From: Antedon mediterranea
Taxonomy: Eukaryota; Animalia; Echinodermata
Direction of reading: 5' to 3'
Assembly (NCBI RefSeq): GCF_964355755.1
Contig: NC_092679.1
Coordinates: 13,685,432 to 13,749,431 of the forward strand
Length of the DNA stretch: 64,000 nucleotides
In this document: positions 6,773 to 39,885 of the stretch, one piece after another
Layout: the number at the start of each line of letters is the position of its first letter
Position numbering within the stretch: the stretch's first letter is position 1
The notes under the pieces: generated by a model
Told to the model about the DNA's origin: nothing
Seen by the model: only the letters and a program-made list of their open reading frames with translations
The model's database searches: none
Made by a program: the position numbers and the translations under genes

Positions 6773-6891
6773 CTAAATAATAATATTGTTTTCTTCAATC
6801 TGCGATTCGTCCGGGTCATCATCGATTTGGAGAAGCAGTACACTCCTTTCTTGGTGACAGCAGTCTGTTTTGAGTTTCTTTAAAAAATCAA
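6773..6891 (-). CDS. Terminal exon 19: short acidic cytoplasmic tail
   Basis: cttag|; VDFLKKLKTDCCHQERSVLLLQIDDDPDESQIEENNIII*; conserved in the paralog fragment at 46929-47050. Confidence 0.88.
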
Positions 6892-9800
6892 CTAAGAATG
6901 AGAAAAACAGATTTAAATTTAATTAAAAGTACACACAACTTAATTTGTTATAAAGCTGTTGACCAAATATAGTTTAATGTGCCAATATTTACACAGTTAG
7001 GATTTAAACATTATACGATAGATATCTTACCTGTTACCACCAGCATGATAGACACGTTCAGCATAATTAGGATAACGGGAGTTATCTTGTGAAGTAAACC
7101 AATGACGTCATCTTCATTGAAACTCTGATCCAAGTTTACGATCGCCCCAATGGATAGATTGACAACGATAAAGACAAGAGTCAACAATTGGAATCTCTGC
7201 TCTGACTTCTCTTTCATTGGTTCAAGGTACAAATGCAATACAATAAATATGACAGTAAAAAACAGAGAGTAAGACAAACTTGAGGACACGTCATCTTTCA
7301 AATTTGCAATGAGTGCCAATAAAGCCTTGTTGTACAGCTCAAATGATTCCCAAAACCAAAATGTGTGCTTGTATTGTCCACAAAAGAACCTTACTCCAAT
7401 CATCCACCCTTTCCTCTGATTTTTCTTACTTTGATCACAACGTACATTTTTATAATATAGCATAAGAACTATGACCAATGGAAAACCAATGATGTATATT
7501 AAAGCAACGTCAACAAGTGTTTTGTTAGTTTGATACGTAGATCCACCATTTTGGTCCATATCAATGGAGTAGTCTGACGTTAGTACTGTTTTATTGACCT
7601 TTCCGTCTGCTGTGACGTTAAATACACGAATTGACCATGGCCCCACTGCTAATATATCAGCACATGTATTTGCATACGTAAGGTAAAGGAGCAACATGGA
7701 TATAACAATACATCTATCACGTATGCAACTCTCAGTTACTGCTCCATGACACTTATTCCAGATGTAGCAAATGAAGTAAATGGTAGACATAGTCAACAGT
7801 ATGACTAGTGGTGTAGCCATGGCAATATGAAGGGAGGAATACGCATTCCAAGAGTCATATAAACATCTTGGACTTAACATACTAATATATCTTATGACGT
7901 CAAAATATTGAAGTATTTGGCCAGCATACTCAAAGTTTTTAGGCCAATGAATTTCGGTTACTTCTGATAGTATACCTAAGACTTGATAAAAATTAATAGA
8001 AATTTTTAAATAGGTAACAAATGAATCTAGGCCGGTTTGTCTTCGATCCACATTTCTTTCCTGCATTCTCCATAAAAGTAAAATCATTCCAATTATTGCA
8101 AAGGCAACACTAACAAATATAATTACAGTTACAGCAGCCCCTTGACATTTGTGACATTCGTTAAACAGCTCATAATGTCCATTAGAACATGCTGCACAAA
8201 GCCAACCTGTGTACCCTTCGACACAAGTGTCATTAAATTTTAGTCCAATATTACAACTTTTTTCGCCTAGTGGACAAGCATAAACTTTTGGTAACGGACC
8301 TCTGTATACAGCATCTTTCAGTTGATTTGGGTTGGTAATAGGAAAAATGTCGTTTTTTAATTTAGTTACAAATGTTGTGTAAGCCAATAAACAGTTTTTA
8401 TATTGTTCTTCGCCTACTCTACAGTCACCATGAAAGTCCCACGACCACCAGTAACCTTTTGTTAGATTCTGATATCCTCCTTCACAGTTAATACCCTCTG
8501 AGCAGGGCATGCATGGCCCAAATCGATCAGTTCGATGGAAATTGTCAAGGCAATAACATGCATTTAGATTGGCAATATTATTGGTTTTAGTTCCTGATGG
8601 ACAAGTCTGACAACCGGCAATGGACGCTGCTCCTGCATTATTTGAAAAACTTCCAAGAGGACATCGTTGACAGGAATCTTTGTAACCACCCTTTTCATTT
8701 ACTCCTCGTTTATCTTGATAGAAACCACCTGTAACATTTGATTTTTATTTATAAGTACCCGTCGTTGTTTTATTGTTATATACTTTTACTATTAATTATT
8801 ACTATTTACTGTCATAACTAAATTAGAGAGATTATTATATTGCACCATACCTGGTGGGCATTTTCCACATTTGGTGCTATCATACAAACGGTATGTCCCT
8901 TCCTTACACGGACTGCATTTACTCGTCATGGAATTACATGTCAAACCTATTTCTCTACCGATAATACTTAACAGCTCCTTTTCAAATCCTTTTATTTCGA
9001 TTTCTGTACCTTCTGTAACACAAACACTAGCAAAAACAATTAGTTTGTAATTCTACACAACATGCAATTATATTGATTCAATTATATCTATTCTGTGTAT
9101 AGTACTATACATATATTACCTACTTAGAGGTGAATATCAGATTTGACATCCACGTGGGAATGATTCCTTTTATTGTTTTTTAGGCAGGATAGTCAGATGC
9201 TCACATCACTATGACACTTGTGAATAAATAGTTAGCTTGTCTTGACAAGTTAGTGAAACAGTGTGGTGATGTGAGATTCCGTTTTTCGGACTTTTTCTGT
9301 TGTGTTTAACAAGGGTGTCACAAAACCTAAGACCACGAAAGCTAAGACCCCCTAAGACCTAAGATCACGAAAGCTAAGACCCAAGACCTAAGATTACAAA
9401 TTCTAAGATATACTACAGCTTAAAAACAATACTTGTTTATCCATACATAATTTTAAACACAGTAGGTTTCATTTATTACCATAAATATAATTAAATACTA
9501 CCGCAAAACATAGATAAACTCACATTATTTTCGCCCGTTGAGTAAATGTATATTTTTTTCCTTACAACAAACAAACTTGACGGGTTGTTTGTTGGTATAT
9601 ATTTACTCCATTGTGTTGGTTCAGAGGATGTTTTTCTTACGCACCTGCCTTTCTTGTATTTTGACTCCAAATTTGTTGACTAACTTTATCCTGAATACCA
9701 CACTTTAAAATTAGGATTTATAAGTACTTTGAGACGGAGAAACACATAAAAACAAATAAATAAATCCTTTAAATTGTTGATTTTACAGACATGTTTCTTT

Positions 9801-12800
9801 GTATACTGTAACTCCTCGAGCTCCCCCCCCCCCCCCCATGCTCAATGTTTTTGTTTCTATGGAGCGCCAAAAGAGCAACAATAATAGTACAAGTATAAAA
9901 ACAGAAAGAAAACGAAACAAATCATGATTTTTAAATTAAAATTTATTTGCCAGTATTTATTTCTTCGTACTTGCATGATTATACTATTATCATTACAATT
10001 TTAATTTTACATTGTTCCATCCACACTGTAGATGGACTCCACAGAGTTTTCAGCCCTCTGTATCATTTTTGCTCTTTTGACGTTCCATAGAAACAAAAAC
10101 ATTGAACATGGTAGGCCTACTGCTACTGTACTGCTGTAGGCTAGTCATGCGAAATTCGCAAACAGTTTGTGTGCGAGAAAAACGTCTGTAAAATCATCAA
10201 TTTAAAAATGTATTTGTTACTTTTTATGTGATTCTTTTTCATAAAAGTGCCAATTCTAAGGTGTGGTATTCAGAATAAATGTTGGGAGTTAAAATACAAG
10301 GCAGGTGCGAAAGATAAATATTTGTAATCTTAGGTCTTGGGTCTTAGCTTTCGTGATTTTAGGTCTTAGGGGGTCTTAGCTTTCGTGGTCTTAGGTTTCG
10401 TGACACCCTGTTAAACAGCGTATAGAGACTATCTGTATTTTGCGCTATATAAAATTAAAACCATAAAACCATAAACCATATTTTTCTCGAAGGACTATCT
10501 ATTTCACGAAGCGAAGAATAACATAAGCGAGTCATATGGCCGAGCGGTTAAGGCAGGGGCGCCGTTTACCGTACCTAAAGAGCCAACAACAACATCGGCA
10601 AGGGTTCGAGGCCGACTCGCTCCTAGTTCTGGTGGTGGAACAAGTCTTCTCGGATAAGGACTATAAACCGTAGGTCCAGTGTACACAGTTATAACCTGTG
10701 TGTACTTTAAAGAACCCAGTTCATTATTCGAAAAAGAGTAGGGGGTTACCCCGGTGAACTGGTTCACACAATTGCCCCTGTATCAGGGGGATTACCACCT
10801 ATCTGATAGGACAGTGATTAATTCACTATTGGTAATCCTTGGCCACATTGCCTAAAGACATAAAATAAAAATAAATAAAATAAATAACATTCTTTTTCAA
10901 ATCTTATATTTCACCGAAATAAAAGGTGATATTTGTTATATTATATAGCCAGATATCAGTTTCCCCTTACCTTGTACATATTAGAAAGGTAACTAAAAAA
11001 TATAGATAAAATCAATACATCAAATCTTTTATTTTAAGTGTATTTACATGTTAATAAATTTCCCGATGTTTGAAGGAATCGATTTCAGTCCACAGCAGTT
11101 GAGATATCTAAATAAAAATAACATGATTAATGCATATGTTGTAACAAAGCATAGTAGCACGTTGTTAACACATTGCAATGGTGAATGATGCTGATGAGAA
11201 TGATGCGACGATCATTGATGATAAAAAGATTGATAAATATACCGAGGATGATGATGACGGTTCAATCGTGGTGAAATTGAAATTATCATTATCTTTTGTA
11301 AATTGTTTTGACTTAAAAACTAAAAACAATAATATACTAATGTACATACACTGTTCCTTTTTCTATCATATGTGATAGAGCATTTTCCTCGATCTGTTTT
11401 ATTGGATTGTCAAATAGATATCTGGAGGAAAATATGAGCTTTTTTTGTTATTTTAATACTTAATTTGAATCATTAAACTGTGATTAAAATGTAATAGAAA
11501 AAAGTTTAACTTTAAAGTACCTATCATCGAGTATTTATTTTAGCTTAGGCTAAAAAAAGTATTAAAAAAAAAATCTCACATGTATTCCAGTGTTGTGTTT
11601 TGGGTTTCCAATGTTTTATACGTAATGTTGGAAATTTTATTCCCATAGAGGAATCTGCAGGTTAGAAAAACAATTATATTAATATAAATTAAGACAATAT
11701 CAATGCAATTATTATTTAATTGTTTGTCCTTGTATTGTTAGTAAAAAAATGATTTACTTGTTTTAGTGCATGTGTGTAGTAGGCATACTGTACAATTGCA
11801 TACACCATGGATAGATGGATATGTATCGACGGTGACATCAAACGCGCTTGCCTATACTAAAGCACTGCTGCAAACACGCTCCTTGAACTCCATGTCTCTA
11901 ATCGCGCCCTCTATAGAACGCTGCGAATCAACTGTTTTTTCGACAACAAAACTTACCCATGTAGAAATCGTTTGCGCAGTCTGATTGTTATATTGGCATA
12001 TCTGCGTCGAGAATTAATTGACAACAAGATATTGGTATGTTTGAATTTATTGAAGAGTGGAAAATAAACGAAACGAAACGAACATCCATGCATACACATA
12101 TAGTATTCCACACAAACATTATAGTGACAACAATGTTGGAGCATACAATGATAGATTCATGCAAACAAAATACTATTTAATAAATAATGCACATGCTAAA
12201 GGTGTAGGCCCGTATGTAATAACAATTTAACACGATAGCGTAAGCCTATTTCAGTTACAGTTGGACAACGGAGAGCAAACGTAACATATGTTAGGTAATA
12301 CATAACATTTGCTTACAGAAAATAAAGATTAGTTCCATTGAACGCTCCATCTTCTATAAATGTAATGTTGTTGTGTACAAGAAATCTGAAAAATATAACA
12401 ATTATATTTTAGTTAGATTTCAGAGCTACACTAACGGTACAGTGAACATAGTTTTAACATTTATACTTTTTAAATTTAAATTGTTTGAAACAAATGTAAA
12501 TATGGGGAAATAACCTGCGACAAGTGAATGGAAGATGAACTTGATTCTTTACAGCTCACACGAGTCAGATGTGTACACTGAACCACCAGTTTCAAGTCCT
12601 TATCCGAGAAGACTTTTAATTCTACAACCAGACCAATAATCGAGGATTGCCTTGAACCTTTACCGATTGTATAGTTATTGTTCCGGAGCACCCGCCTTTA
12701 CCGCTTTACCGAAAACGACCAAATAGTATACGAAATATCTGTATTCAAAGCTTAACTCTAACATATTACACTCAGAATTAAAATATTCTGTTGATTAGAA

Positions 12801-21800: not shown

Positions 21801-24800
21801 CTATGTCTTTCTGGTAATTCAGCTTCCTTAACTATATACCATCACAAAACCGGCGTAGGTAAGCCCCCTATCCATATTTCATTCAATAGTGCCACGGGCG
21901 CTCGGTTCTCAGTCCAGTAAAATGTTTACATGATTACACCAAACATTTTCGGCATACCTCTGGTCCTTTGTTCCAACATATCTATGGACGGTCGGCCGAT
22001 TGCGGCTCGTTTCATATACGCAAAACTAAAAGAGGCGATTTCTTTCAATGGTCTTGACCCTACATTATAAAGGTCATAGTTTGTCGGGTTTGTGGCATGT
22101 TCACCCAGCAAACTTGTATTTTAATTAGTTTTAGTTTAGTAAGTCAAGTTAATCTTTGGATTCTTGATAACCAGGCATATTATATTTAACATTCAATATA
22201 TATTTATGTGATTTTATGTAATAACCAAGGTGTTTAGTTAGTAGTAGTTGTTGTCCGTACATATACGGTAGGCCTACACTCGATAGGGGCAGCCCATACA
22301 TTATGTAGGCCTATACGTCTTAGATGGAACTAAATTAGTTATAGGCTGCCCTATTATTATTACAACTCTAGTATTATATATGATATTATGTGTTTCCTCA
22401 TTTAAATAAATATATGACAATTTCCATCCAACTTGGTGTTATTGTATTTTTCCGTCTGGCCTCTTGCGGCATAAAGGTATATTTTCGTAGTTACTTTTAA
22501 TATATACTCACAGCGTTTGAAGAGATGACATATTTGCAAAGATTTTTGTTGAGATACTTTGAATATTATTTTTGCCGAGAAGCAAATTTTTAACTGCAGG
22601 TATTTTACGGTCTTCTAATGAGGTTAGACTGTTCCAACTTACATCCCTGAAATACAATATAGTTATATTATAATTATATTATATTTCAGTGAGCAATACT
22701 TAGATAATAACATTAGGCCTACAATTACGCCTTGGTTAGACATTGATTTGTCATGTATACAATTACTTTTCAATAACATATAAATACATACTACACTTCA
22801 AGAAAGATATAACATTACTTGTTATTACATTGTTTTTCTATATGGCTTAAAGGCCGGTGCACACTAAATAATTACACGCAAAGTCACAAGCGTCAAATCG
22901 AAGCGAGTCGCGTGAAGCTTGAACAAGTTAGACCATCGCGAACAAAGTGTCTCGATCCGAGTATATTTCCCATGATTGGAAGCGAAGCGTCACGCGTCAT
23001 TTTCGACAATTCCGGTTTGATCTGGGCGTAGAGAGAGGCCTAGGCTGGTAGGCCTAGGTCTAGAGGCATAATAAGCTAGGTAGGCCTAGCTTTTGTATTT
23101 GCAAATCTATCTCCAATATACTTGTATTTTTTAATACACACATCCACTGAAAATGCATTTTCTTTGATTTGGGGATTTTTATATTCATGTGCACCTTTTG
23201 TCATAAAAAGACGAGAATAGGCCTACTCGTGAATTATGGCCACAAAATTGACGTCGCTGACACTACATCCATGTTGAACAAATTATTTTCATCTTCATCT
23301 GACAGATGACATCACACATAGCCCTACGATCCTTGTGATTTGATTGATCAAATTGAAGCGAACAGTGAAAGCGAAAACGAAAAAGTTCCCATGGAGAAAC
23401 TCTAGCGAATTCACGGGAGGAGCCTTATATTACTAGTTCCGAATTCAACGCGTTGAAGTTTGATTTGATGTTCACACTGAAATCGTCTGTCGCGGCAAAA
23501 GTACGGTTCGATTTGACGCTTGACGCGTGTCGCTTCGCATATAATTTGTTTAGTGTGTAGGCCTATCGGCCTTTAATATTTATAGTTTGAGGATAATTAA
23601 ACGAAGGCTTCTAATCAATGTTTTTAAACAATTAAAATTTACTAATAAGTTAAATAATGTTTCTCGGTAATATTATTTTAGCATAAAAGACAACTATTTA
23701 GTTATTATATAGGCTTGTATATCACTAATTGTCTATTTGATACTATTTCCATTGGGCTAGCATGTAGTAGTCAATACAAATACCCTTTAACAAACTCTCA
23801 TTCCATTCATGGATTCATAACAAAGTAGACTAACATGATTGATATTATCAATAATAAAGAATATAATTCTTTTAATTTATCAATATCATTTCGATAATGT
23901 TTATTAGTGAATGATGTAGGCCTAGATACAAAACAAAAAATAAAACACTCACAGAGTACCATATATGTTTCCACGAAATATTGGAATTTCCGTAAGTCTA
24001 TTATAAGCAAGATGTCTAAATAAGAATAAATAAAACATGCCATAACTATAATCATCTACGATTAAAGCAATTGCAAATTAAAGATATTATGTTATAGTGA
24101 GCATGTTAATTGTAGGCCTAATTAGCAAACAAACTGTTCTTCTTGTAAAATAACATATTATTTAAGGTGAAGAAGACCCGTGTTACACAATAATGTTTAA
24201 AATCGAAAGTTCGAAATCTGAAAATAACAATAGTGTAAGGTATAAATACTGATGTCTAGGCTGACTAGGCAAAGCTGCAGTTCATGTCACATGATTTATA
24301 AATAAAACCTAGTTAGGCCCATGACAAACTGCCGTACATGGTAAGTTATTTAAGCTATATTCACTATCATTTATTTACAAAACAACGAAGTGGCATTGAT
24401 TAATATGTAGAAGGATGCTCTTTTTTTTTTTAACTGAAAATTACTTACAGAATATAAATACTATCCAATGCGACGAAGGCGTCTTTGTGTATAAAGCTAA
24501 TATTGTTGTCTGCAAGTTTGCTGAAAACAACAAAACAGACGTACAATATTCTATATATATGTAACTACTTTTACGCTTAAAAGCATTGCTTTATGCAAAC
24601 GCGACTCTATAGTTCACTATGTCGGTCGGTCGGTAGGTCCGTCGGTTGGTCTGTCGGCAGGTCGGTCGGTCGGTAAACACTAACTCAAATTTGCGCACGT
24701 GACTGGGCCAGCCATATATATGACCTTATTTCTCATAGCGTCTGATCATCACGGTTGTGTTTTATTGAGGTTCAGTAATATCTTGTGGTTAGAGATCAGA

Positions 24801-27800: not shown

Positions 27801-30800
27801 GGCTTCTGTGACTGCTGGAAATGAGTTCCACGTCTCCCATGCGGAGTGTTTTGCTTTTCCGAAGAACTGGGATGTAGTATCGGACCCAGTAAATGCATGA
27901 AAAACTGACAGCCCTCTTGACTTATCCTCTCCTGGGTTATGGCAGATGGTATATATATTAAAATAATTGGAAGTGCTTACACCCATGTCAAATGCGACCC
28001 ATATACACGTACCAGGATAACAGGCTATTAGATTGCAGAAAATACCAACCAGGATAACAATGACATCAGTATCAACTGTACGCACCAAAATAACCATGCT
28101 ACCTTTCTTTAAGGCATCATCAATGTGAATGCACATCCTGGAGTCGGCCTCTTCTTGGTCGCAGATTGACATAGGTTGAGTAGATGTCAACATACAATAG
28201 ACTCGCATACAGGACATATATCAAGAATTACTTACTAATTTAATATGCCTTTTTAATTAATTATTGGTATGAAACTGTATAAGTAAATTAATCGTTTGGT
28301 TACAAACAAAATAAATTAGTATGTATCATAATAAAACTTACCTGATGTAATGTAAACTTCTTTGCAGTCAGAGTAATCATGGGTAGACAGACACCTTTGT
28401 AATTAAAAAGTTAAATAACTCCTCTTAATTTACTGGATCTTTCAGAAAGTCTGGAAAATTCCCTGGAATCTTTGTTTGTCCCCCAACTTTCCTCCTGACC
28501 CCTTTTCCTCTTTTTCTCCTGTAGACTACTTAAGACTATCTGTTCTGTAAGTGTCCCGCACTATATCAATTCTGTTACTATTCTGCAGCTGCTGTCTGGT
28601 CCACGGTAGAAGACCTGTCATACAAATGATACAAGAATAACGATCCGCATATAGAAGTGACCAATTATGTGGTGGTTAAACAATAGATACAATCCTGAAT
28701 GCAAAGAAATGTACTCACCTTATCACCGTAGTCATCAAATGTAAATGCATGGTTGCTGGAAAGAGCATGGACAATAGCAGCTCCGTCAAACACCTTTACG
28801 TCAAAATATGTAGGAGGTTCAGGCTGGCCTTCAGTCTCCAAATGCTGTAGCAACTCAGACTTCTTAGTTGGTAGTCGAAGCTTTCCATTTACAGCCAAAG
28901 AGGGTGGCCATGGCTGGTTTTCATGCATGGAGAAGTCTTCCAAATCTCCATCACGAGATTGACTTGCATGATACAGTCGACTGAATAGGCTGGAGTCACT
29001 TTTTAAACTCTTAACTTGTTGCTTTGTTTTGGACACTGATTTTGACCATGGTGTGTTTAACAACGGCAGCTTATTCTGTTTGATGGCTTGTTGAATTGTA
29101 ACACTTCTGTCGAGAATAACTTCCTTGAAATATGTTTGGTACTGGGTAGTACCTACATCCTGAATTGTACGAACTGTCACTACTGCACTTTCATTGGCAC
29201 AATCTCAAGCATCCAAGACCAGAAGTTCTGAACAATTATCGAGGAATGGGTTGCCTGCATTGCTCAGGGAACTGCAAGTGCCGTTCAGCAGGTCTTTCTT
29301 GCACTGGTCTTTGTTGCCCATGCCGTGGAACTTGTTCGTCATCTAGCAACTCTGTACCATTATAAGTGTTTGTTTCCAGATAAATAATTTCATAAAAGTA
29401 AAGTTGATAATCACCTCCATGTATTGTTATGGATGCTAACGCCATAATTGTCAGTCAAATGGTCTTTTGTCTGTTTACTTTAGTCCAGTATTATTGAGCC
29501 AAGTTTGATACAGTACAGTATATGTTTTATATACTTTTTTTCAGTGGTTCCTAATATTGTGTTAAAGGAAAGTAACTGATACTGATACAGGATAAATATA
29601 TATTAGTAGTTCTATTACAAAAATGAATGTTGTTGTTCTTATAACTACAATGTTCATAACATAGCCCAATATTGGCGCGTTTTGATTGAAATCCCCTTCA
29701 ATATGACAGAAAATTACATTATTTGACCTATATATTCCGTCTGAAGAGAAATCATATATTTGTTATGTGTGTATTGCAATTTACATGTCATGAGCTTTAA
29801 TTTGATACCAAACTTGGTATGTATATACGAAGATTTAAGTTTTCACCTAATTACGTAATACTAAAAAAAGGGCGTGGTCCAAATGACGTCGTTAAATTGT
29901 TCCGATTTTTGGGCACCCCTTCTAAGATTGTTAGATATACCCTAAAGAAGGTTTGTGCATAATTTGGTGCTTTTGTCACAAAATGCACAATCTTCATAAA
30001 AACTGGAAGTTAGCTATAAGAAGAATTTAAGGTTATTTGGTAAAAAAAATAGGCCGTTGGTGGTATGCCCATCTATGGGGATGTTTGCTTCTTTTGTACA
30101 TAATACTTACAGCAGCCATATGTCGCCGCCTTGAAATGCTTTTGATGGGATACTTCGTAGTTTGTTATTAGCAAGATATCTATGGTATGGTATTGAGAAA
30201 AATAACAGATTAGTCTTAAATATGACCCGAAGTTACTTTATAGATGCAACCTTCAATCACCACAAAAAAAACTGGATAATACCAATGAGCACCATATTAC
30301 AAAAATTATAGATATCATCGAGTTAAATTAAAAAGATATTGACATTATAATAATTTAACATCTATCCGGGGGTTGTTTTATAGCATTTTTAAATATGACC
30401 CGAAGTTACTTTAGAGATGCAACCTTCAATCACCACAAAAAACTGGATAATACCAATGAGCACCATATTACAAAAATTATAGATATCATCGAGTTAAAAT
30501 AAAAACATATTGACATTATAATAATTTAACATCTATCCGGAGGTTGTTTTATAGCATTTTTAATGAATTGTTTTCAATTATATTAATTATGATATAAAAA
30601 TAAATTAAACATTTGCTTATAATTTAGTAATGTAGTATATAAAAGCCCATATTAAAATTAATTTAAACAAAACATGTGAATTGATAGTTGATTTTAGGAC
30701 AAAAAATTGGTCGGTTCATGAGCCCCTAAATATAGGAAATGAGTTAATTAAAGTTGTCCCAGCGTATAAATATCTAGGAACTATAATAGACAAAAAGCTG

Positions 30801-33800
30801 GACTGGTTTAATAACATTAAAAAACTCTATAAAAAAGGACAACAACGGCTATATCTGTTAAGAAAACTTAGGAAATGTAATGCTAGTAAACAAATTCTTA
30901 TACTGTTCTACCAGTCAACCATACTTTTTGTAGAATTATCTGGGAGGCTTGTTTATATGAAAAAGATAAGGAACTATTAAATAAAATTACCAGAAGGGCT
31001 GGGCGGGTTATTGGAGTTGATGTATCTGTTCTTAGTTTCAACTACGATGCAGGTGTTCTATCCTTGGTAAAACGTATACTCTCCCAAACAGACCACCCGC
31101 TCCATAAGGAATACATTTTTCTTCCATCAAATATTCGTATCCGTCTGCCTCGAGCCGTACTAAACGCTACAATAAATCATTTGTCCCACAGTCTATTGTC
31201 ACCTATAACAAACTTGTCCAGCGCTAACTCATGGAGAGAACACCTGGATCGTAGACTTTTTGATATTTTATTAGTGATTTTCTATATTGACTGTTTTCTG
31301 CATGTACGTATATTGTTATTATCTCTGCAGTGTATATAAGAGGAATTTCTAATGTATTTTTATATTGGACCAAATAAAGAATATATATATATATATAATA
31401 TATTTTACCATTTTTTATATTTTGTGGCCAGTAAAAATCGTACCGTAATTTATATAATATAGATCTGTGCCTTAAATATATATATATATATGTCACATAC
31501 ATTTACAGATTTAGTAAATCAGGTGTAAATTCTAGAATTTTACTCAATAGTAAGCTGGTGGTAAATACTTTCGGTAAAGTTTTTTTCACATAATGAAAAA
31601 ATACTACATGAATGAACATTAGTTACTGATGATTAAAACGAATTTATTTTGTTCATTTGGCACAAATATTTGTCGATACTGAAATATATCCACACACAAC
31701 AATGCAACGATGCTTCGTTACGAGCTATCTCCGTTTACCATTAGAATTCGCTGGAATTCGGCACCGCAACCGCAATAACACTGTAATGGTAACTGGCAAA
31801 CAAAGTTTTATATTTTTAAAATGTAATTTTACTATGTGGAATATACATTGTTCAATTGATTAATGATAGTGAATTGATAAAAGTCCTCTTCCATCCATTT
31901 ATCCGTTACGCTATTCGTCTTGGGTAGACATTGCGTATGCTAATCGTTTCCATGATAATAATCTAAAATAAATAAGTGCATCAACCTAGCAACGTGACCG
32001 ATAAATACAAATAGCCAATAAATAGAAAAAGGTAAGTAGTACAAGGCTATGTATCTTTGTTACGGAATAAGAGCTAGACTTTCGATCGCCCTCTAGTGAG
32101 ATTGTATAAACAGAAAACAGTTATATTTATTACTCACATGCTACTTCCTGTTGAGAGTTTGTAAGTTCCAGTAGATAGTTCTACGACAGATGGTGAAATA
32201 TAGCTAAAAAGAATAAAACACAAATCACATCATTAATATTTATTCTAAATTTAAATTGGCCATATCAAAGTAATATTAAAGTTATTCACTTTAAGTAAAA
32301 AATTCGAGGCAAAAACAACAAGTTTACGTAATTAACAGGTAAATTAATTTGGTTACATTTCGCCTGGAAAATCTTTACGAGCGAAAGTTAACAAAGATTT
32401 CAAACCACGAGTATACATTATGCATGATGCTAATTAGGATTGTTTACAACTCATCGCGGTTGAGAAGGAGTTTTCACACAGATCGCGAGGAAGTTTTATG
32501 ATTATGCATACAGAGTAGCCAAACAAACGCGTTGCATTATGAGATATGTTTTGATCGAAAACTTTGACTGGAAGTCAAAGTTATTTTTTGAACCAAAAAA
32601 CGTCCGTATTTTGGTTAAATTATTTTTTTTTCAACTCATTTTTAGTGAAAGTTAATAACTATTATGATACTTCAAAATGACGCACTTTTTTTCGAAATAC
32701 TGTATTCAAAAATTTTACTTTTTTTTATTATTCAAAGGGACAATACATCTTTAATAATAAAGTATTGTGTGTATAGTTTGGTTCCGCCGAACAACGCCGA
32801 TATAATGTACTAGATGATACGCGAGCGAACTTCATTGGTAATCGTAAAGAGAATACAAATGACGTTTAACTATATTATCACAAGTTAATTAAGTTTGTTA
32901 GTCTGTAATACTTCTGCGACTTGTTTACACTTGTGGGTTCACAGAATTTAATTTATCATAATAATCTTAAGGATATTGTTTAACAACGGCACACTTCCTT
33001 TTAGGCCTACATTTCAACAGATCCACCATTTGTAAATGCAAACGCATTTTCACCAAGCATTTGAAGTTTCGTGTTATCAATTCGCCTGAAAAAAAAAAAG
33101 ATGTACTAGTTCGTAGTTCCTTATTAAATTCAATTAAAAGGCAGTCACCATATTTTTTAGATATTTTAATACTTAATAACTGTCTATTTGGCTTGACCTC
33201 TTCTATTTCTTCTGGTCAAAATTCAATTTAAGCATTTACGTCCTCTATGGTGAATAAGTAACTAGCTTTACAAAGACAAAGCACACATGACCTACCTAAT
33301 GTTTCAAAATATGTTGGTATGGATCGATGAACCTTGACCTACTCTACCTTATAACAGTTGACCTACTTCTTTATTTCAAAATTGTAAAAGTTTAAAATTA
33401 GATTGCGCAACTTTTACCATAATATGTTTTATATCTTTGACTTTATTATTCCATATTTTGTCCCATACCATAGTCTTATTTAAAAACTCTGTTTCACATT
33501 TTACTTGGGAGACTGGCACTGTCTCTACGCCGAATAAGTAGCTAGCTTTTTTTTACACTTGATCTACTTAAGTGTAATGTTGTAACAAAAATTAAAAACT
33601 TACAAAGCTGATAATTTGCTGTTGTTTGCAAAAGTAAAAGGTTCAATGATATTTATATCATTAGATGACAGGTATCTGAAAAAAAAATCATCATTAGTTT
33701 TTAGAATAAATATCTCAAATTATAAAAGTTGTTAAATAAGAGTGTGGTAGTCGTGGTAGTGACAGGTGGTACCATAGCAGCAGCAGCAGAAACAGTACAA

Positions 33801-36800
33801 TAAAGTGACTAGAACGATCGTCAACGTGTATTTTCAGTAACTAAACATGCAGTACATTATTTTTTTTATTCATTCGTGTTGTAAAGAAAAATCACTTAGA
33901 GACGCTATAAAATAACACCTGATGATCATCTATATCAAATCAAATATTCTTTTTCATCATCATCGTTATCATCAAAATATAAAGAAAGATCAAATAAAGT
34001 AAAACATGTCTATGAAGAGATAAAACGGAAACACATCAACATTCTAAATGATCTTGATACCCCAATAACAAGAAATTATTCAAGCTGTTGCCGATTACGG
34101 TTATAGAAACTGCGCTTAATTATTATATAACTTAAATTTGTATTTAGAAATTAATAATACTTAGTAATCAAATATCGGATTTAAATTCTCCCATAAATTT
34201 GCTAGTGTAATGCTAATATATTATAAAACAAGCAATAATTTAAATGATTTTGTCATCGTTAAGTTTTGTCACTAAAATGATCGACTATTAACTGCTTTTG
34301 TTGAATATGTTTCTGAAACATGGCTAAAACTATAAAGACATTTTACTATATTCAGTCGGTGAAACAACAATGTCTTTTCAGGTTTAAGTGTATCATGCAG
34401 GAATTGCATGAACCTTTCCATTCTTTGACTATAGTGGTATAAAAGTTGCTCGGATACGTGCATTACCAAAACCGTATAATCATCAAATAAACACATGTTT
34501 CGTCATCAAGGGTGATTTCAACCGAATGAAAAATAAAGCGTTATCCTCTAAAAGCAAATAATTACTGTTTTGTAATAACTGTATATATAATTATATTATA
34601 ACAATGTAATTGGTGGTTTCATTTAGGAACAAATAAACAGAACAAAACGAATGACCAATTTGGATGCACTAAGATGTATACACTGTTGATGCATTTGTAT
34701 CTCTTACATGCAGCAGCAGCAATGGCAGCAAAAAACAACAGAAGAAACAGAAGTTGCAGCATCGGCAACAGAAGCATCGGCATCAGCAGAAAAAGTTTTG
34801 AAGGTAACAATTGAACTTACAAGTTAGTTATCACGGTGGATCCTTGAAATGTGGTATTTCTCAGTATAGTTATTTTGTTGTTCTTCAGGCTTCTATTATG
34901 AAAACAAAAATTATGCCACTACTTAGGATACTTTATTAAATGCGATTGTATAATAGTAACTTCGTTTTATCATTTTCTATGCTTTATTCATTGACTGTGA
35001 AATCTTCAGAAATACGTTTTATTGTTGTTATTGTTCTAAACCGCAGTGCCGTCCAGTTGTAATATTGTTAATAGTGAGACTTTTCCATCGGGACGGTAAA
35101 CGAAAAGAGACGGTAATTTAATTTATAGAGTCTGGTGCTAAATGCCTTCGAAACAAAAGCAACAACGGTTAGCCACCTCTAGGCTTAGGCCCCTGATCCG
35201 TATGCATGCAAGCTCGGTTGAGCAGGTTCTGCGTTAGTCAGGCTAGGTATTCAACACATAATCAAAAACCGAGTTTAAAAAAAAATAAATCTAGAAGTAT
35301 CAAAATGAATTTACATCCTACACATACTATATATACACATATGATGTTTTTGTTATGAAAATAAACAACTTGTGCCTATCATGTATACATTTGCTTTGCT
35401 TATGGTTTAACAGTTTCAGAAAGACATCAACTGTGCTGCTTCGTCTGGTTGAATTGTAAGACCGATCTTTAGATCGGCTAAATAATGAACGGAATGTATG
35501 CCACCTACTTTCGTTAATTTACCGTCTCGAAGCAAAAGCTCACTACTAAAAGTTAGTTCTACACAGGTAAAAGAAGTAACATTTTCAAATTATATTGTCA
35601 ACTTACAAAATACGAAGAAATGGAAGATCATTAAAAACTGTTGATATGTCTGTCAGCAAATTTGTGTCTGCATGTCTGAAATGTTTAGATAAATTAAAAT
35701 TATTATTTATAACTAAATATAACCAGGAAAGAGTTAAATTAATTTAACTCTTCCCTGATATAACTCAATACATTACATAGTGTATCTTTTAATGTATGCG
35801 TATCATTGCTATAGAGTTCAGCGTTGCTGACGTCACGACGGTAGATGGCGCTGCGTGGACGGTATGTACAGAGCCATATATATATAGAGTTACGACATTG
35901 AATGCAGATCAATTTGTGTCAAACTTGTCTCCGTTAATTCATGTAAAGTATAGGAGCAAGAAAATACTTTAAACATTTTCTTATATTAAAAAAAAATGTA
36001 ATTGCACATTTTACGGTGAAATATCGATGTGCACAGCGTACAGAAGTACTTGCGGCAAAGAATATTGCGCGCGCGTGCGCTAGTACATTATAAAGTTCGA
36101 TTGATTGATTTTGGAACGAAACATCCCATAACTACGTCCTATAAATAACAATTATGTAATATTTTCAATTCATAATGCATGCTTTTTGATGACTAAATAA
36201 AATAATAAAGTGTCGTGGATGTATTTGTTAATATATTGAATAGGGTATGAACAATATTAAAATAATAAAGGCAAATTATTACAAATGAAATAATGAACGA
36301 GTCTCTGAAAGTTAGTATTAAAAACACACGGAGAGCATATACTGTATAAAAAGAGGGGTGAATTTGTATTGGTTCATGCTTTGATGTATCCTGACTTGCA
36401 TGTAGGCCCTAGCATATATTATTTTGTTATTATAGACACAATATATATATGTTACCAAATTAATACCATTAATAAAATTAATTACTAAAACAAAAAATAC
36501 ATTCGAATAATTATCGATCTATAGTTTCCCCTATGCTTCATAATTTTTGGGATTTTATTTGTGTTACACGAGCTTGTTGAAAATAAGCACTTTCTTATCA
36601 GTGGGGGATAGTTGAAATTACACAGTAAAATCTCTATTCTTTTGTACACAAATTTTGTAAATAGAGAGGCATTTTAAAAAGCTACGAAAAATAAACAGTG
36701 TGGTAAAAAATTTTTTCAGATGACTAAGTATAGGTAATATAACTTGAATATTACATTTCTTGAATTTTTATTCAACTTCAAATTTTTATTTTCATGCTAT

Positions 36801-39800
36801 AGCAAAAATTATTCACCGTATATCCACCATCTTTTTTCACCTTCTAGGGAGTCACAAGACATGTTATTACATTAGGTTAACTACCTAACTACTGAAAAAA
36901 GGTCTTCCTGGTTTTTATGGAAGAATTTTGCAAAATTTTGTATTTGGCCATATTTAGAGAAATTCATGTTTTTTTCGTCTTGATTTCTGTTACAAATATT
37001 TGATTTATATTATATATTATATTTAAAATTCATTCCTGTACCTGAGCTTTAAAACTTAATCATTTTCAATAAAAACAACTAAAATTTCAAAAGATCACTA
37101 ATTATTTGTAATAATAATAATAATAATAATCTATTTATTCTTCAACTACAGTTTAAGTCTAAAAAAGTCAAGCAAGATACATAATTTGATAGAAATACAG
37201 ATATCTATAGTTTATCAACATAGTAGCGGTGAACGCATTTTTGGTTGCGCTTGCAACCACGCAGAGCCATCTATCGTTGTGACGTCACACCGCAGAACTC
37301 TATTACCTGCTTGCAAATCACACTTAATAATTTGGAATCTGGATGGATTAGAATAAACGTTCACATCCTAAAACAGAGAGTAGGCCTAATAGTAATAGGG
37401 AATATTTAACCCGAAGTGTTGCAACAAAATACGAGTATTATTTCAAAAGAAATAGAAAAGAAGGTTTTGCAGGGCTGTGGTGTAACTATTGTATTTTGAA
37501 TTAATATTGTAAAACGGACCTAACGTCAACTAATTTGATATAATATGACAGTGATAATATGATTAAACTAATTAGTAACAGTAAGAATTTAATAAACATA
37601 ACAGACTTACATATTACCAATTGTCTTCGGCAAGCTTGGTAATTTACTAAGTAAATTGTTATTAACATTTCTGTCAACAATTAAGATATAAATAAACAAA
37701 ATGTAATGAAGAATCAATGCAATGCAACATATTTATAGCAATACTTTAATTTAGTTACGTCTTGACACCTGACAAAGTTATTTTCACCAATACAATTATG
37801 TCGCCTTTTATATCCGTGAAATATAAGATGGTGATTCGCGAACATATAATCCTTCGGGAATGTAAAATCTCAAATTAGCCTAGGCCTATATTAATACTAA
37901 ATGTTAATATACATTTTATACACTTCTTTAAGTTGCATATGTTGTGTGAAGACCGGCTTACTCCGTATAGATCATACATAGCATGAGTTGTTAGTATAAG
38001 GCTAGTCTATAGCCATAGAACAAGACCATATACATGGCTGAAGTTGCGTGCTCAAGTTAGTGTTTACCGACCAACCGACCGACATAGTGAGCCAAAAGGA
38101 TGTCTTTTCTAATTGTTGTGAAATATGAGATTTTGGTATTATATTTGAAATAAATTTTATAACCTATCCATAACCAAAATCCGGATAAAAAAATTAGTTA
38201 ATGTATAAGTGAATAACTTTATCATAAGTACAAATTGGCCTATTCAAAATGTGATGACATTCATCTGCATTTTGTTCATGTTTGGAGAACAATACATGTT
38301 CAAAGTTTTGCCTTATCATTCTTAAGCCTACTTTCAACAATTTATCGAATGATATTTCATTTTAACCCAAATTAATATTATCATCTGTACTGTAGCTTGC
38401 TTGCATTTATGTAAAAGATTACTTACATGGTGCCAAGTTTATGTAGCTTTGACAAAGCATCTTCGTCGATTTCCTTCAGGTTATTATTGTTCATGTAACT
38501 ATAAAAAAAAATTGTGCTATGGTGAACAACACATTGTAAACATACTAAACAACGTAAGGAATTTGCACGTAAAATGCTAGTTTTTATTCCTTAAACACAT
38601 CATCTAGCTAGTTAATCTATATTGATCGTTCGTATTGCTAAATTCCAAAATACTGCTTTGTTCTGCATGCACACATTATTAATACTAGAGAGTGAACTCG
38701 CTTCGCTCGCTCCCTCTCTAGGACTGTAGACGATGGTTCTCGGGATGATAATGACTCGGTAAAGAGGTTTCAGAAGAACATTCTTGCCTGAACGTTTTCG
38801 GTCGGTTACCATTATTGAAATGCTTGATATTCGTAAAACTAAACCTACTCACTGTTTCACAGTGTCGTAGATGATTAATAGCGTTTTACGTATAGTGTTA
38901 ATTGTTTGGTAGGGCCCTTATAGTGTGGATGTGGGGAGGCGGAGTTAATTTGAGGGAGGTACTTATTTGAAGGATCCGTAAATTTTTTTAGTTTTAATAA
39001 TATGGTACATTTACAAATAAAATCCTCTAGTAGATATGAAAAGTGGTAAAAAAGAATTACAAGTGCTTGGTAAATTGTAGATAACAGTACGATGAAATCT
39101 ACTAAAAATAGTATAATTGTGTTATAAATATAATACAATATAATGTGTATAAATGTGGATGGGCGTTTATTAGATGGTAGTTGGGGGGTGGGGGGTGTTG
39201 CGGCGTGGTAATTATCAATTGATGTTTTATTGGGGAGGTGTTCCGGTCGTTTATTTAAATAAATACCATTCTACTTGGTATAATCAATACATTATTCCGC
39301 GATAGTGAGCCGTTTTGGCCTAAGAATGCAGACGTTTTAGACGGCTTGCAACATGGGCATAAGTATCCCAGGATCCTAACGGGACACAGATAGCGCACAG
39401 TATTTATTATTTATTGAAGTCCTGGCAGGTTACTCCAAAACTCGGCTATCGGGGTTTCATTCGATTTCAAACAAAAGCTCTTATTGTTCAAGAATAGCCT
39501 ATAACATATAACATTTGACTACGTTGGTCTAACCTCCCTCCAAACAGCAGTTCGGAAACTGCAAAGCAGCCTTCGGGTCGCCGGGCCCGAAGAGGATATG
39601 TAGGGATAATAACATATAACCGTAGCTTTAACATTGCAATGTGAAACTTACAGAATGATTGTGTCTACTGGTCATTGAAATTACAAAAAAAACTTACAGA
39701 ATTTGTGTGTTTACTGGAATTCCAACCGGCCATTCATTGAGTCCACGGTTTGCACAGTCCACGGTTATTTCTGTACATTCACAAACCGCATTCACATTAG

Positions 39801-39885
39801 TATCATTACTACATGCAACTTCAACACCAATTGATAAATCCACCCATAAAAACAACAGGCAGCATATCAAGGATGTAGAGTCCAT
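6773..39885 (-). CDS. 19-exon gene, about 1093 aa: signal peptide + LRRNT + about 16 LRRs + Cys-rich (GCC2/GCC3, ephrin-receptor-like) repeats + about 9-TM membrane domain
   Basis: Hand-spliced with GT-AG junctions and a continuous frame: 39885-39698, 38498-38427, 37670-37611, 35675-35607, 34892-34821, 33675-33604, 33085-33011, 32203-32138, 30179-30111, 24520-24449, 24015-23953, 22646-22512, 12385-12317, 11654-11580, 11421-11350, 11107-11048, 9026-8851, 8728-7031, 6891-6773. Sum is 3282 nt (divisible by 3), with no internal stop. Confidence 0.88.
7031..8728 (-). CDS. Exon 18 (1698 nt): Cys-rich repeats + multi-pass TM domain
   Basis: ttacag|GT GGT TTC; GGFYQDK...CQRCPLGSF...CQTCPSG...CYCLDNFHRTDRFGPC runs in frame into ORF 7011..8510. 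Donor ACAG|gtaaga. About 9 hydrophobic segments. Confidence 0.93.
8851..9026 (-). CDS. Exon 17: linker + first Cys-rich repeat
   Basis: ttgctag|...|gtatgg, phase 2 to 1; ...TCNSMTSKCSPCKEGTYRLYDSTKCGKCPPG. Confidence 0.88.
9313..10409. mobile_element. Foldback-type MITE (possibly Mutator-like) with about 88-bp TIRs built of ctaagacc sub-repeats
   Basis: gggtgtcacaaaacctaagacc... / ...ggtcttaggtttcgtgacaccc; inner arms 9630-9890 and 10060-10320 are also inverted; flanks tgtttaaca / tgttaaaca. Confidence 0.85.
10527..10882 (+). mobile_element. tRNA-derived SINE with a Deu/Nin-like central domain
   Basis: A box tggccgagcgg; B box ggttcgaggcc; core cggataaggactataaaccgtaggtcc...ttaaagaaccc...aagagtagggggttaccccggtg resembles the Deu domain as I recall it; (taaaa)n tail; aataacat on both flanks. 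Confidence 0.8.
11048..11107 (-). CDS. LRR exon 16 (60 nt)
   Basis: tatttag|...|gtaaat; VYLNCCGLKSIPSNIGKFINI. Confidence 0.82.
11350..11421 (-). CDS. LRR exon 15 (72 nt)
   Basis: cctccag|...|gtatgt; IYLFDNPIKQIEENALSHMIEKGTV. Confidence 0.88.
11580..11654 (-). CDS. LRR exon 14 (75 nt)
   Basis: ctgcag|...|gtgaga; LFLYGNKISNITYKTLETQNTTLEYI. Confidence 0.88.
12317..12385 (-). CDS. LRR exon 13 (69 nt)
   Basis: tttttcag|...|gtaagc; LFLVHNNITFIEDGAFNGTNLYFL. Confidence 0.9.
12480..12720 (-). mobile_element. Degenerate second tRNA/Deu-like SINE
   Basis: Reverse strand contains agtcttctcggataaggac...cagtgtacac and a B-box-like ggttcaaggc. Confidence 0.65.
12940..13242. repeat. Near-identical tandem duplication (about 138-bp core, about 165-bp period)
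   Basis: attatctttcaatct...gatccaatattaacg occurs twice. Confidence 0.9.
13396..15933 (-). mobile_element. 5'-truncated, frameshifted L2-clade LINE (ORF2 RT)
   Basis: KPWYT, SNYRPVSNL, LLDLSAAFDTVDH, VPQGSVLGP, YADDTQ, LHWLPV; L2-like tail ending in (TAT)n at about 13400. Confidence 0.92.
16535..17118 (+). pseudogene. SGNH/GDSL hydrolase ORF of the type carried by Ngaro elements, frameshifted
   Basis: Blocks VGHSFV, RGGA, HLGENDI. The terminal DGVHL is displaced by a 5-nt duplication (ccgat ccgat, about 17010). Confidence 0.8.
17170..17395. repeat. 19-bp minisatellite (tatgtttgccttcgggcct), about 11 units
   Basis: gccttcgggc at 17175, 17262, 17281, 17300, 17319, 17338 and 17357, plus variant units. 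Confidence 0.92.
17570..22470 (+). mobile_element. Decayed tyrosine-recombinase retrotransposon (DIRS order, Ngaro-like): gag, RT, RNase H, YR
   Basis: Gag WRTYDESFR + Cys/His knuckle; RT SPLGVVPK, KYRIIQDLS, DIEDAFR, CLPMGA, HILDDF; RNase H ELFPIV, RCDNSAVV, HIPGVDNVLADLLSR; YR RLPIT, FFRIGEL, HKT, YKGHS; many frameshifts. Confidence 0.9.
20362..21686 (+). mobile_element. Non-autonomous hAT derivative inserted in the YR gene
   Basis: TIR caggggcgcagccag / ctggctgcgcccct; internal PVTSTEAERSFSTL...LSGLCLMNIH (hAT dimerisation domain); YR reading resumes after it; TSD only partly visible. Confidence 0.88.
22512..22646 (-). CDS. LRR exon 12 (135 nt, two repeats)
   Basis: tttcag|...|gtgagt; LDVSWNSLTSLEDRKIPAVKNLLLGKNNIQSISTKIFANMSSLQTL. 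Confidence 0.9.
22851..23572. mobile_element. MITE with TTAA flanks (Kolobok- or Harbinger-like)
   Basis: ttaa|aggccggtgcacactaaa ... tttagtgtgt...cggcct|ttaa. Confidence 0.65.
23953..24015 (-). CDS. LRR exon 11 (63 nt)
   Basis: tatttag|...|gtgagt; LHLAYNRLTEIPIFRGNIYGTL. Confidence 0.88.
24449..24520 (-). CDS. LRR exon 10 (72 nt)
   Basis: ttttcag|...|gtaagt; LKLADNNISFIHKDAFVALDSIYIL. Confidence 0.9.
24590..24730 (-). repeat. Dispersed repeat family B (ccga microsatellite; aacaagaccatatacatggc end)
   Basis: Related copies at about 38020-38095, 42740-43152, 52690-53470 and 63885-64000. Confidence 0.7.
25223..30016 (-). mobile_element. Academ (XPG-nuclease type) DNA transposon deletion derivative with very long inverted arms
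   Basis: TAA|TAGC...GCTA|TAA (3-bp TSD); intron-containing fragments with FDGAAIV, EEADSR, VDTDV, HAFTGSDTTSQFFGK (XPG/FEN1-like) and a C-terminal Cys cluster; arms 25245-27320 (minus the Helitron) match 29260-29990 inverted. Confidence 0.8.
25378..26792 (+). mobile_element. Helitron-like family A, complete copy, inserted in the Academ arm
   Basis: A|TC...CTAG|T; the empty site is visible in the other arm (rc of about 29850-29865). Confidence 0.85.
30111..30179 (-). CDS. LRR exon 9 (69 nt)
   Basis: ccatag|...|gtaagt; IYLANNKLRSIPSKAFQGGDIWLL. Confidence 0.9.
30218..30562. repeat. Tandem duplication, about 173-bp unit
   Basis: aaatatgacccgaagttac...tttatagcattttt occurs twice. Confidence 0.9.
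30650..31380 (+). mobile_element. LINE 3' fragment (Rex1/L2-group RT C-terminus)
   Basis: IVDFR...YKYLGTIIDKKLDW...QQRLYLLRKL...HPLH. Confidence 0.8.
32138..32203 (-). CDS. Exon 8 (66 nt), degenerate LRR
   Basis: tttttag|...|gtgagt, phase 2-2, open frame; IYISPSVVELSTGTYKLSTGSSI is a weak LRR match. Confidence 0.7.
33011..33085 (-). CDS. LRR exon 7 (75 nt)
   Basis: tttttcag|...|gtaggc; LRIDNTKLQMLGENAFAFTNGGSVEI. Confidence 0.85.
33604..33675 (-). CDS. LRR exon 6 (72 nt)
   Basis: tttttcag|...|gtaagt; LYLSSNDINIIEPFTFANNSKLSAL. Confidence 0.9.
34821..34892 (-). CDS. LRR exon 5 (72 nt)
   Basis: aatag|...|gtaagt; LSLKNNKITILRNTTFQGSTVITNL. Confidence 0.9.
35072..35545. mobile_element. MITE with short imperfect TIRs
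   Basis: tagtgagacttt...gacggtaaa / tttaccgtctc...aaagctcacta. Confidence 0.55.
35607..35675 (-). CDS. LRR exon 4 (69 nt)
   Basis: tttcag|...|gtaagt; IHADTNLLTDISTVFNDLPFLRIL. Confidence 0.88.
35811..37303. mobile_element. About 1.5-kb non-autonomous TIR element
   Basis: atagagttcagcg...tgacgtcacgacggtagatggcgctgcgtgg versus ccacgcagagccatctatcgttgtgacgtca...gaactctat (about 45-bp imperfect TIR). Confidence 0.75.
37611..37670 (-). CDS. LRR exon 3 (60 nt)
   Basis: gacag|...|gtaagt; INVNNNLLSKLPSLPKTIGNI. Confidence 0.88.
38427..38498 (-). CDS. LRR exon 2 (72 nt)
   Basis: tttatag|...|gtaagt; LYMNNNNLKEIDEDALSKLHKLGTI. Confidence 0.9.
39698..39885 (-). CDS. LRR-TM gene coding exon 1: signal peptide + LRRNT
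   Basis: MDSTSLICCLLFLWVDLSIG signal-like segment, then C...CEC....VDC.NRGL..WP.GIP.NT..L (LRRNT). Donor CT|gtaagt. Acceptor tag| at 39907 implies an upstream UTR exon. Confidence 0.9.

Follow-up and report, generated by a model that had tools for sequence, protein, structure and literature searches.

The 64-kb window of Antedon mediterranea DNA analysed here (the whole stretch shown, on contig NC_092679.1, positions 13,685,432 to 13,749,431) holds on its minus strand a many-exon receptor gene, which raises the question of what kind of animal protein joins a leucine-rich repeat (LRR) ectodomain to a Cys-rich stalk and a multipass membrane domain, and what it could do. As judged by sequence comparison, the gene product belongs to a family of the CRMP (cysteine repeat modular protein) type, with nine predicted transmembrane (TM) helices and an LRR sensor, which is ancient in animals and is expanded and variable in crinoids.

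The gene and its exon chain

The gene is real and was correctly read by the first-pass annotation, made from the nucleotide sequence. It runs from an ATG at 39885 to a stop codon ending at 6773, and its 19 exons, joined across GT-AG introns in all cases (18/18), give a frame of 1093 amino acids (aa) with no internal stop. The chain was found by a scan for symmetric phase-2 exons and manual reading of the sequence; all of exons 2-16 (n=15, 60-135 nt) are of phase 2-2, with an exon junction at LRR position 4 in 15 of the 16 LRRs. As a control for chance, a filter for splice sites and LRR starts returned 12 candidates on the minus strand, none on the plus strand and none in each of 10 shuffles. 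RefSeq XP_071961856.1 (P0162, Antedon mediterranea, 1093 aa) matches the translation in one gapless block with 1083/1093 identities (99.1%). The earlier count of 19 exons in one frame of about 1093 aa, 15 of them small, was reproduced in this way; that the LRR and membrane exons form one gene is borne out by the same gapless full-length match and by the longer homologs of our first homolog search, in all 10 of which the LRRs and the core lie in one chain.

A model of 20 exons and 1109 aa, which included an exon of 22 nt (10992-10971), was dropped, its 16 extra residues being absent from every paralog, and the paralog alignment indicated an acceptor at 9026, leading to 19 exons and 1093 aa. A tblastn search of the introns for alternative or duplicated LRR exons found none. 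Contigs of two sequencing runs over 5500-10800 cross the introns with no splice joint; the presumed RNA run looks like DNA, and the result has no bearing on expression.

The domain order is a signal peptide with an LRR N-terminal cap (aa 1-59), 16 LRRs (60 to about 420), a Cys-rich stalk (about 460-683), a membrane domain (686-1052) and a tail of 41 aa, so that the short tail noted at first pass stands, its 40 aa being measured here as 41. Exon 1 (39698..39885, minus strand, as are all the exons) carries the start codon, the predicted signal peptide and the Cys-rich N-terminal cap (aa 1-62), for which the Pfam LRRNT model gives a weak match in paralog P0002. One LRR unit each is encoded by exon 2 (38427..38498, 72 nt, phase 2-2), exon 3 (37611..37670, 60 nt), exon 4 (35607..35675, 69 nt), exon 5 (34821..34892, 72 nt), exon 6 (33604..33675, 72 nt) and exon 7 (33011..33085, 75 nt), the last containing Met187, at which the RefSeq model P0164 starts. 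The unit of exon 8 (32138..32203, 66 nt) is atypical; single units follow in exon 9 (30111..30179, 69 nt), exon 10 (24449..24520, 72 nt) and exon 11 (23953..24015, 63 nt), and exon 12 (22512..22646, 135 nt) holds two, followed by an intron of 10,126 nt with transposon remnants. Exon 13 (12317..12385, 69 nt), exon 14 (11580..11654, 75 nt) and exon 15 (11350..11421, 72 nt) again encode one unit each, and exon 16 (11048..11107, 60 nt) the last LRR with the C-terminal cap. Exon 17 (8851..9026) contributes a linker and the first Cys-rich repeats, of ephrin-receptor-like or TNFR-like kind (aa 430-488). The large exon 18 (7031..8728, aa 489-1054) holds the rest of the stalk, including DUF7630, and the nine predicted membrane helices (aa 686-1052), which together make up the putative CRMP-type core; Ephrin_rec_like (E 0.0056) and DUF7630 (E 1e-5) both match it under their curated Pfam cut-offs and rise above them in paralogs. 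Exon 19 (6773..6891) encodes a short acidic tail, predicted to be cytosolic, and the stop codon.

A second database entry, RefSeq XP_071963866.1 (P0164, 705 aa), starts at Met187 and is 100% identical to aa 187-882 of the window protein. Because of this identity, and because exon 18, read in a different frame, encodes the final residues of the entry, P0164 is most likely a truncated model of this very locus. It spans the 10-kb intron and joins the LRRs to the stalk just as the 1093-aa model does, and lacks exons 1-6 and everything after TM4. Its end implies a 118-nt GT-AG intron (7546-7429) within the open exon 18, beyond which it closes in a shifted frame (window 7403-7546, minus strand); as read from the sequence, this intron has a weak donor and no pyrimidine tract. 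We think that the short form is an annotation artefact, or else a minor truncated isoform. Residue 895 (region 7509-7511), at the start of TM5, is Asp in this copy and Tyr in the close paralogs.

The locus might then be a decaying or decoy copy which, either as the truncated RefSeq form or at full length with a disabled core, binds its ligand without signalling by itself. The end of P0164 after TM4, the private Asp at 895, a loss of C855, C879 and R955 throughout the clade (see below) and the 10-kb transposon-filled intron are in line with this. We hold it improbable, given that all 1093 codons are open and 18/18 introns canonical, that the RefSeq cut requires the poorly formed 118-nt intron inside an open exon, that no other part is as well conserved among the paralogs as the membrane domain, and that the same loss is seen in Anneissia, the change therefore being old.

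The membrane domain and its relatives

AlphaFold, run on the membrane domain of the window protein with 112 sequences, predicted nine long helices with a predicted local distance difference test score (pLDDT) of 86.7 and a predicted template modelling score (pTM) of 0.86, in agreement with the roughly nine TM segments counted at first pass; in addition, the TM2-TM3 loop is predicted to hold two short helices and the TM4-TM5 loop a beta-hairpin, and a further short helix to precede TM6. By hydropathy seven helices are strong and two are weak (TM2 1.19, TM6 0.41), and the polar TM6, whose value is a mean, bears the only invariant Trp of the family, two Glu and one Lys. The topology is predicted to be N-out, C-in because basic residues concentrate in the inner loops (3-4 Lys or Arg in each of five, vs 0-2 in the four outer ones) and because three N-glycan sequons lie in the outer TM4-TM5 (hairpin) loop. 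Prediction of a homodimer of the nine-helix domain, the one pairing modelled, scored 0.15 (mark, 0.32), which neither supports such a pairing nor speaks against it. The full-length model was built on paralog P0002 (94.7% identical) rather than on the window's own product and reached pLDDT 88.5 and pTM 0.69; its Foldseek matches are LRR proteins, the LRR part folding like the ectodomains of LRIG1, LGR4/5 and Toll (E 6e-14 and up). A structural search of the membrane domain against solved chains gave no significant match, and a sequence search of PDB with the core profile, following a first profile swamped by LRR matches, gave a designed protein at E 0.038 as its best hit.

The first-pass view that the protein is not an LGR, an adhesion G-protein-coupled receptor (GPCR), a Toll-like receptor (TLR) or a receptor tyrosine kinase is upheld by motifs and helix count. 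A pattern scan of the membrane domain found neither DRY nor NPxxY (one DRF lies in the ectodomain, at aa 556); two patterns for the GPCR proteolysis site (GPS) gave no match, the DUF7630 Cys module standing before TM1 instead; and TIR was not matched in the paralogs, the window protein ending in nine helices and the 41-aa tail. LGR4/5 and other LRR-containing GPCRs resemble it in their LRRNT-capped solenoid above a multipass domain and are the best structural matches of the LRR part, whereas the window protein has nine predicted helices instead of seven, no class A motifs and a long Cys-rich stalk, and its core profile matched no PDB chain sequence below E 0.03. The expanded echinoderm TLRs are alike in their LRR ectodomain, multigene expansion, variation of the concave beta-strands and conserved signalling end; the window protein differs from them in having no TIR, in being multipass and not single-pass, and in its layout of one LRR per exon.

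Among the 112 aligned sequences, 18 membrane-domain columns are conserved in at least 90%, and the window protein keeps 16 of them. TgCRMPA, taken from a supplement of Singer et al. (PMC9815656) and compared by eye without score or E-value, keeps 14/18 in the same order. These are the two Cys that precede TM1, the Lys-Ile pair in TM2, the Cys ahead of TM3, the TM4 Tyr, the second Cys of the hairpin, the TM5 Pro, five residues around TM6 (Phe, Trp, Glu, Arg, Lys) and the Pro that follows TM7. TgCRMPA departs at four columns (Gln, Asp, Tyr and the second Glu), and its spacing is within 3 residues, save for an insertion of 56 residues ahead of TM4 and a difference of 5-6 residues in two loops. 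The Cys pattern of the stalk likewise follows the published CRMP core (by eye, TgCRMPA). On these grounds the Cys-plus-9TM core appears to be of a known kind, the CRMP type. Two profile searches named neither CRMP nor Flc among the matches listed (9 of 3,327 and 16 of 7,990 candidates). C855, C879 and R955 are lost in 8 of 9 crinoid sequences and kept by 99-100 of the 102 others, P0017 of Anneissia being the crinoid sequence that retains them.

The CRMPs (TgCRMPa/b, Plasmodium CRMP1-4, Tetrahymena CRMP1/2, Dictyostelium Q86I19) share with the window protein the ephrin-receptor-like Cys repeats leading to a 9TM domain and an outside N-terminus with an inside C-terminus (a prediction for the window protein), and the CRMP literature describes swappable N-terminal sensor modules and expansions in free-living species. 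The window protein differs in carrying an LRR solenoid where CRMPs have MAR, Kringle or lectin modules, in its 1093-aa length and animal host, and in lacking the outer hairpin Cys pair and the Arg of the RK motif. Kinship to Cys-rich multipass proteins of protists had been proposed at first pass and is supported here; the accompanying statement that these are poorly characterised does not hold for all of them, in view of the knock-out phenotypes of CRMPs in Plasmodium, Toxoplasma and Tetrahymena. According to PMC9670195 and PMC9815656, rhoptry discharge (Toxoplasma) or mucocyst discharge (Tetrahymena) is blocked in such knock-outs, and PMC9815656 holds CRMPs to be apicomplexan-specific (bioRxiv 10.1101/2022.08.11.503631, PMC3083381 and PMC13739732 were drawn on as well).

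A receptor that is not a channel would also suit such a core: binding would shift the 9TM bundle and expose a docking site for a G protein or an adaptor at the conserved cytosolic motif, in the manner of a divergent GPCR. TgCRMPa and PfCRMP1 are called GPCR-like by PANTHER (PMC9670195), a distant Prymnesium homolog has a class-C-type ligand-binding domain (PF01094), and conservation peaks at the cytosolic ends of TM2 and TM6. With nine predicted helices rather than seven, with no DRY, NPxxY or GPS pattern, and with PMC9670195 itself stating that CRMPs are not bona fide GPCRs, we consider this rather improbable.

The exon-18 product found 1,334 cluster representatives at E<=0.001. Among the 150 matches listed, 146 fit the membrane-domain profile, and 60 of these are at least 900 aa long, 44 with four or more LRR pattern matches. 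Of 30 clusters checked for species, 17 were named, and all were from sponges (Oscarella), cnidarians (Nematostella, Actinia, Montipora, Oculina) or echinoderms (crinoids, a sea star, sea cucumbers); Patiria and the brittle star Amphiura hold further LRR-bearing homologs. The LRR-bearing version occurs in a sponge, in cnidarians and in echinoderms of four classes, where its members are listed as uncharacterised proteins or under wrong names. No protostome or chordate member was among the 17 named clusters, about 120 of the listed matches being without a species check, so that absence is not shown. In Holothuria leucospilota, NCBI names P0023, P0026 and P0053 carboxypeptidase N subunit 2, LGR4 and IGF-binding acid-labile subunit, and the cnidarian members P0011, P0122 and P0094 bear MAM, sushi and SRCR or CUB domains N-terminal to the LRRs. 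A. mediterranea itself has at least 10 gene models of the family, five on one 25-Mb contig, as counted from database records and not by genome scan.

More distant matches, named ones being from Ectocarpus, Triparma, Thecamonas and Prymnesium, place the same core under putative Ig, HYR, EGF, TIG, cadherin, beta-helix or class-C-type ligand-binding ectodomains. P0196 (Prymnesium parvum), P0118, P0125 and P0112 combine the core with one of three additions: a class-C-type ligand-binding domain, EF-hands inserted near TM1, or a CAP-Gly tail. These EF-hands hint at Ca2+ regulation. A profile of 18 distant sequences (from 20, two having been removed for their length) scored the window domain at 115.8 bits vs at most 4.6 for controls (20 shuffles, 1 reversal), a score that is not independent, since the members had been found and trimmed with profiles that include the window domain. 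Atlas clusters agree with this spread, comprising haptophyte, ciliate, chlorophyte and sponge sequences, with TRP on 11-15% of members in several. A FastTree tree (150 of 200 sequences kept, midpoint root) served for choosing representatives and carries no claim on the order of events.

The Pfam family TRP (PF06011), which we take to be built on fungal Flc/Pkd2 proteins, matched 2/10, 3/28 and 8/44 homologs in three sets (the last at E<=0.01), two of them above the curated cut-off of 28.5 bits (P0008 at 37.7 and P0044 at 36.3 bits). These matches suggest a tie between CRMP-type proteins and fungal Flc/Pkd2, with Ca2+ permeation as a common output. Pkd2 has nine predicted helices and, as reported in PMC9727806, passes Ca2+ on stretch when reconstituted; Flc1 is described in PMC9600462 as regulating flavin transport and calcium. 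Nine predicted helices beneath an extracellular domain are common to Flc1/Pkd2/Trp663 and the window protein, and animal homologs pass the PF06011 cut-off; Pkd2 differs in its Ig-like ML-type ectodomain, with neither LRR nor Cys-rich stalk, vs the LRRs and Cys repeats here. The canonical six-helix TRP channel is not this family, despite the Pfam name. Kinship to Flc/Pkd2, as suggested at first pass, therefore holds by way of these homologs and not through a match of the window's own domain.

That the 9TM core transports or takes up small molecules, a role proposed for the yeast Flc flavin carriers, with LRRs that would capture a carrier or cargo, is in our view very unlikely. Conserved polar residues do lie inside the predicted helices (Q737, Y840, E949, E952, K956, H987, Q1002, N1012, N1046), and the Flc1 data fit (PMC9600462), but numerous paralogs that vary in their binding face would be of little use to such a device, and those known relatives that have a Cys-rich stalk serve triggered secretion.

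The LRR-bearing animal branch of CRMP-type proteins is apparently undescribed. Our literature search, covering mostly non-subscription papers and parts of them, found no animal LRR-CRMP or LRR-Flc protein. The first CRMP paper, reportedly that of Thompson et al. 2007, may list animal homologs. In the text consulted of PMC9670195 the words metazoa, animal, Nematostella and fungi are absent, as is metazoa in that of PMC9815656, whose 10 supplements name Dictyostelium and Chromera and not Nematostella, Strongylocentrotus, Homo sapiens or Schizosaccharomyces. So far CRMPs have been ascribed to apicomplexans or alveolates; a branch in animals (Nematostella, echinoderms), compact and single-chained with a conventional LRR sensor, would make the CRMP mechanism testable in systems that are tractable and harmless. 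For invertebrate immunology it would mean a multigene receptor family with TLR-like variation that domain-based surveys would overlook or mislabel.

Variation of the LRR face and a possible role

With the LRR register set from the exon junctions and the concave face taken as LRR positions 2, 3, 5, 7 and 8, four paralogs of at least 90% identity vary at 29/80 concave sites vs 25/211 other LRR sites (p=6e-6), and at 6/80 LRR core, 35/256 stalk and 31/367 membrane sites. From P0002 the window protein differs at 22/80 concave, 8/211 other LRR, 2/80 LRR core, 14/256 stalk and 9/367 membrane sites. No other set of five positions (n=11,628) reaches 29 variable sites. The most variable patch is LRR5-10, encoded mainly by exons 6-11, with 19 of the 29 sites. 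An artefact of splice annotation is argued against by the core positions, which are as near to the junctions as the concave ones. Beyond crinoids, the Oscarella lobularis pair P0055/P0201 (adjacent-numbered, 92% identical) differs at 12/55 concave vs 18/216 other sites (p=0.008). Under a pattern-based register the concave share is higher in 7/7 diverged pairs. Sea-urchin TLRs vary on the concave face in the same pattern (PMC3367398). The putative pattern-recognition role proposed at first pass gains support from this variation. The family's 10 or more gene models in A. mediterranea and a decayed copy (see below) would fit birth and death of family copies.

Considering these data, we favour, at slightly less than an even chance, a receptor at the cell surface that would bind foreign surfaces, of microbes or parasites, through its variable LRR face and answer through its membrane domain with local Ca2+ entry or granule release. 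The ligand would bind the concave beta-sheet, chiefly at LRR5-10, a step that we consider rather likely. That it is non-self and that the role is defence is somewhat more probable than otherwise. The disulfide-rich stalk would relay binding to the 9TM core, and the core, either by itself or together with another member of the family by analogy with the modelled CRMPa/CRMPb pair, might open a Ca2+ path or couple to the exocytic machinery; this last step is a little doubtful. Since the 41-aa tail bears no enzyme or adaptor domain, output is expected from the core and its conserved cytosolic-side motif, and homology to Pkd2 (PMC9727806) or to CRMPs would make it Ca2+ entry or triggered exocytosis, respectively.

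Several observations weigh against this receptor with a Ca2+ or exocytic output. The concave excess consists of amino-acid counts, not ratios of non-synonymous to synonymous substitution (dN/dS), on paralogs that are not independent, and relaxed constraint, which only codons could exclude, may be its cause. Exposed sites evolve faster in any case. Between the window protein and its nearest paralog 1/80 concave sites differs, and under the pattern-based register 3/17 pairs reach p<0.05 and 0/10 near-identical ones (>96% identity) do. The CRMP match was made by eye and carries no score, the tail is about 500 aa in TgCRMPs vs 41 aa here, and the crinoid core may be attenuated, given the absence of two Cys and one Arg from 8/9 crinoid sequences. 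In the window protein the membrane domain itself matches no Pfam family at E<=0.01, PF06011 included, which makes the TRP link only transitive; 1 of 44 members matches a nematode 7TM chemoreceptor model (E 0.0012); and RefSeq stops its model of the locus after TM4.

Recognition of a non-immune kind would equally use a core that triggers Ca2+ entry or exocytosis: gametes or conspecifics could be recognised, or chemical or mechanical cues sensed on tube feet and epidermis, with a rapidly evolving partner that is endogenous or comes from the environment. Rapid diversification is also seen in gamete-recognition proteins, and the sea-urchin REJ proteins are linked to acrosomal exocytosis. The near-identical pairs without concave excess come from corals, sea cucumbers and others; moreover, in the literature CRMPs are read as contact or environmental sensors and not as immune receptors, and Pkd2 responds to membrane stretch (PMC9727806). 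We nevertheless find this explanation unlikely, if worth keeping in mind, as recent duplicates within one genome, a decayed copy and the concave patch fit host-microbe races better than a single cognate ligand.

If the defence receptor is the right reading, animals may have kept the ancient 9TM trigger of CRMP/Flc proteins and added the LRR sensor before the sponge split, giving rise to a variable class of immune receptors beside TLRs and NLRs that works without an adaptor cascade, the binding of non-self leading directly to Ca2+ entry and discharge of granules. The crinoid clade lacking the Arg and the disulfide would then pair with an intact helper paralog, as CRMPa does with CRMPb, and the cnidarian members would be candidates for discharge of stinging or gland cells. 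This wider picture is speculative, and we would sooner expect it to fail than to hold.

Paralog fragment, repeats and other features of the window

The decayed copy is the 3' end of a paralog, from TM5 to the tail, at 46926..48856 (minus strand), 7 kb upstream of the gene; it is 94% identical in its first part, has a frameshift near 47285 and is split by a 1.2-kb repeat (47378-48586), another copy of which lies at 60223-61520. None of its upstream exons was found in the window. A segment of about 540 bp just upstream of the start codon (39955-40478) is duplicated 3.5 kb further upstream (43480-44015) at 95.5% identity, possibly as a promoter duplication or a repeat.

The open stretch of 184 codons at 49900-50451 (minus strand), with a plausible splice acceptor and a Ser-, Pro- and Arg-rich product that matches no Pfam family, is possibly an exon of another gene. 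Intron 12 (12386-22511, 10.1 kb) contains a broken reverse transcriptase of the long interspersed nuclear element (LINE) type (14535-14999, RVT_1 E 1e-20), a second reverse transcriptase fragment on the other strand (18676-19020, E 6e-4), presumably part of a DIRS-type element, for which no recombinase match was seen, and a hAT dimerisation fragment (20755-21000). Intron 9 contains, at 26790-29863, a degenerate element that is probably a DNA transposon; it lies between 480-bp inverted repeats (26790-27254 and 29387-29863, 93%), and its broken reading frames match no Pfam family. Broken LINE remnants occur at 56879-59840 on the minus strand (RVT_1 E 3e-14 at 57503-57952) and at 30636-31336 and 55714-56202 on the plus strand.

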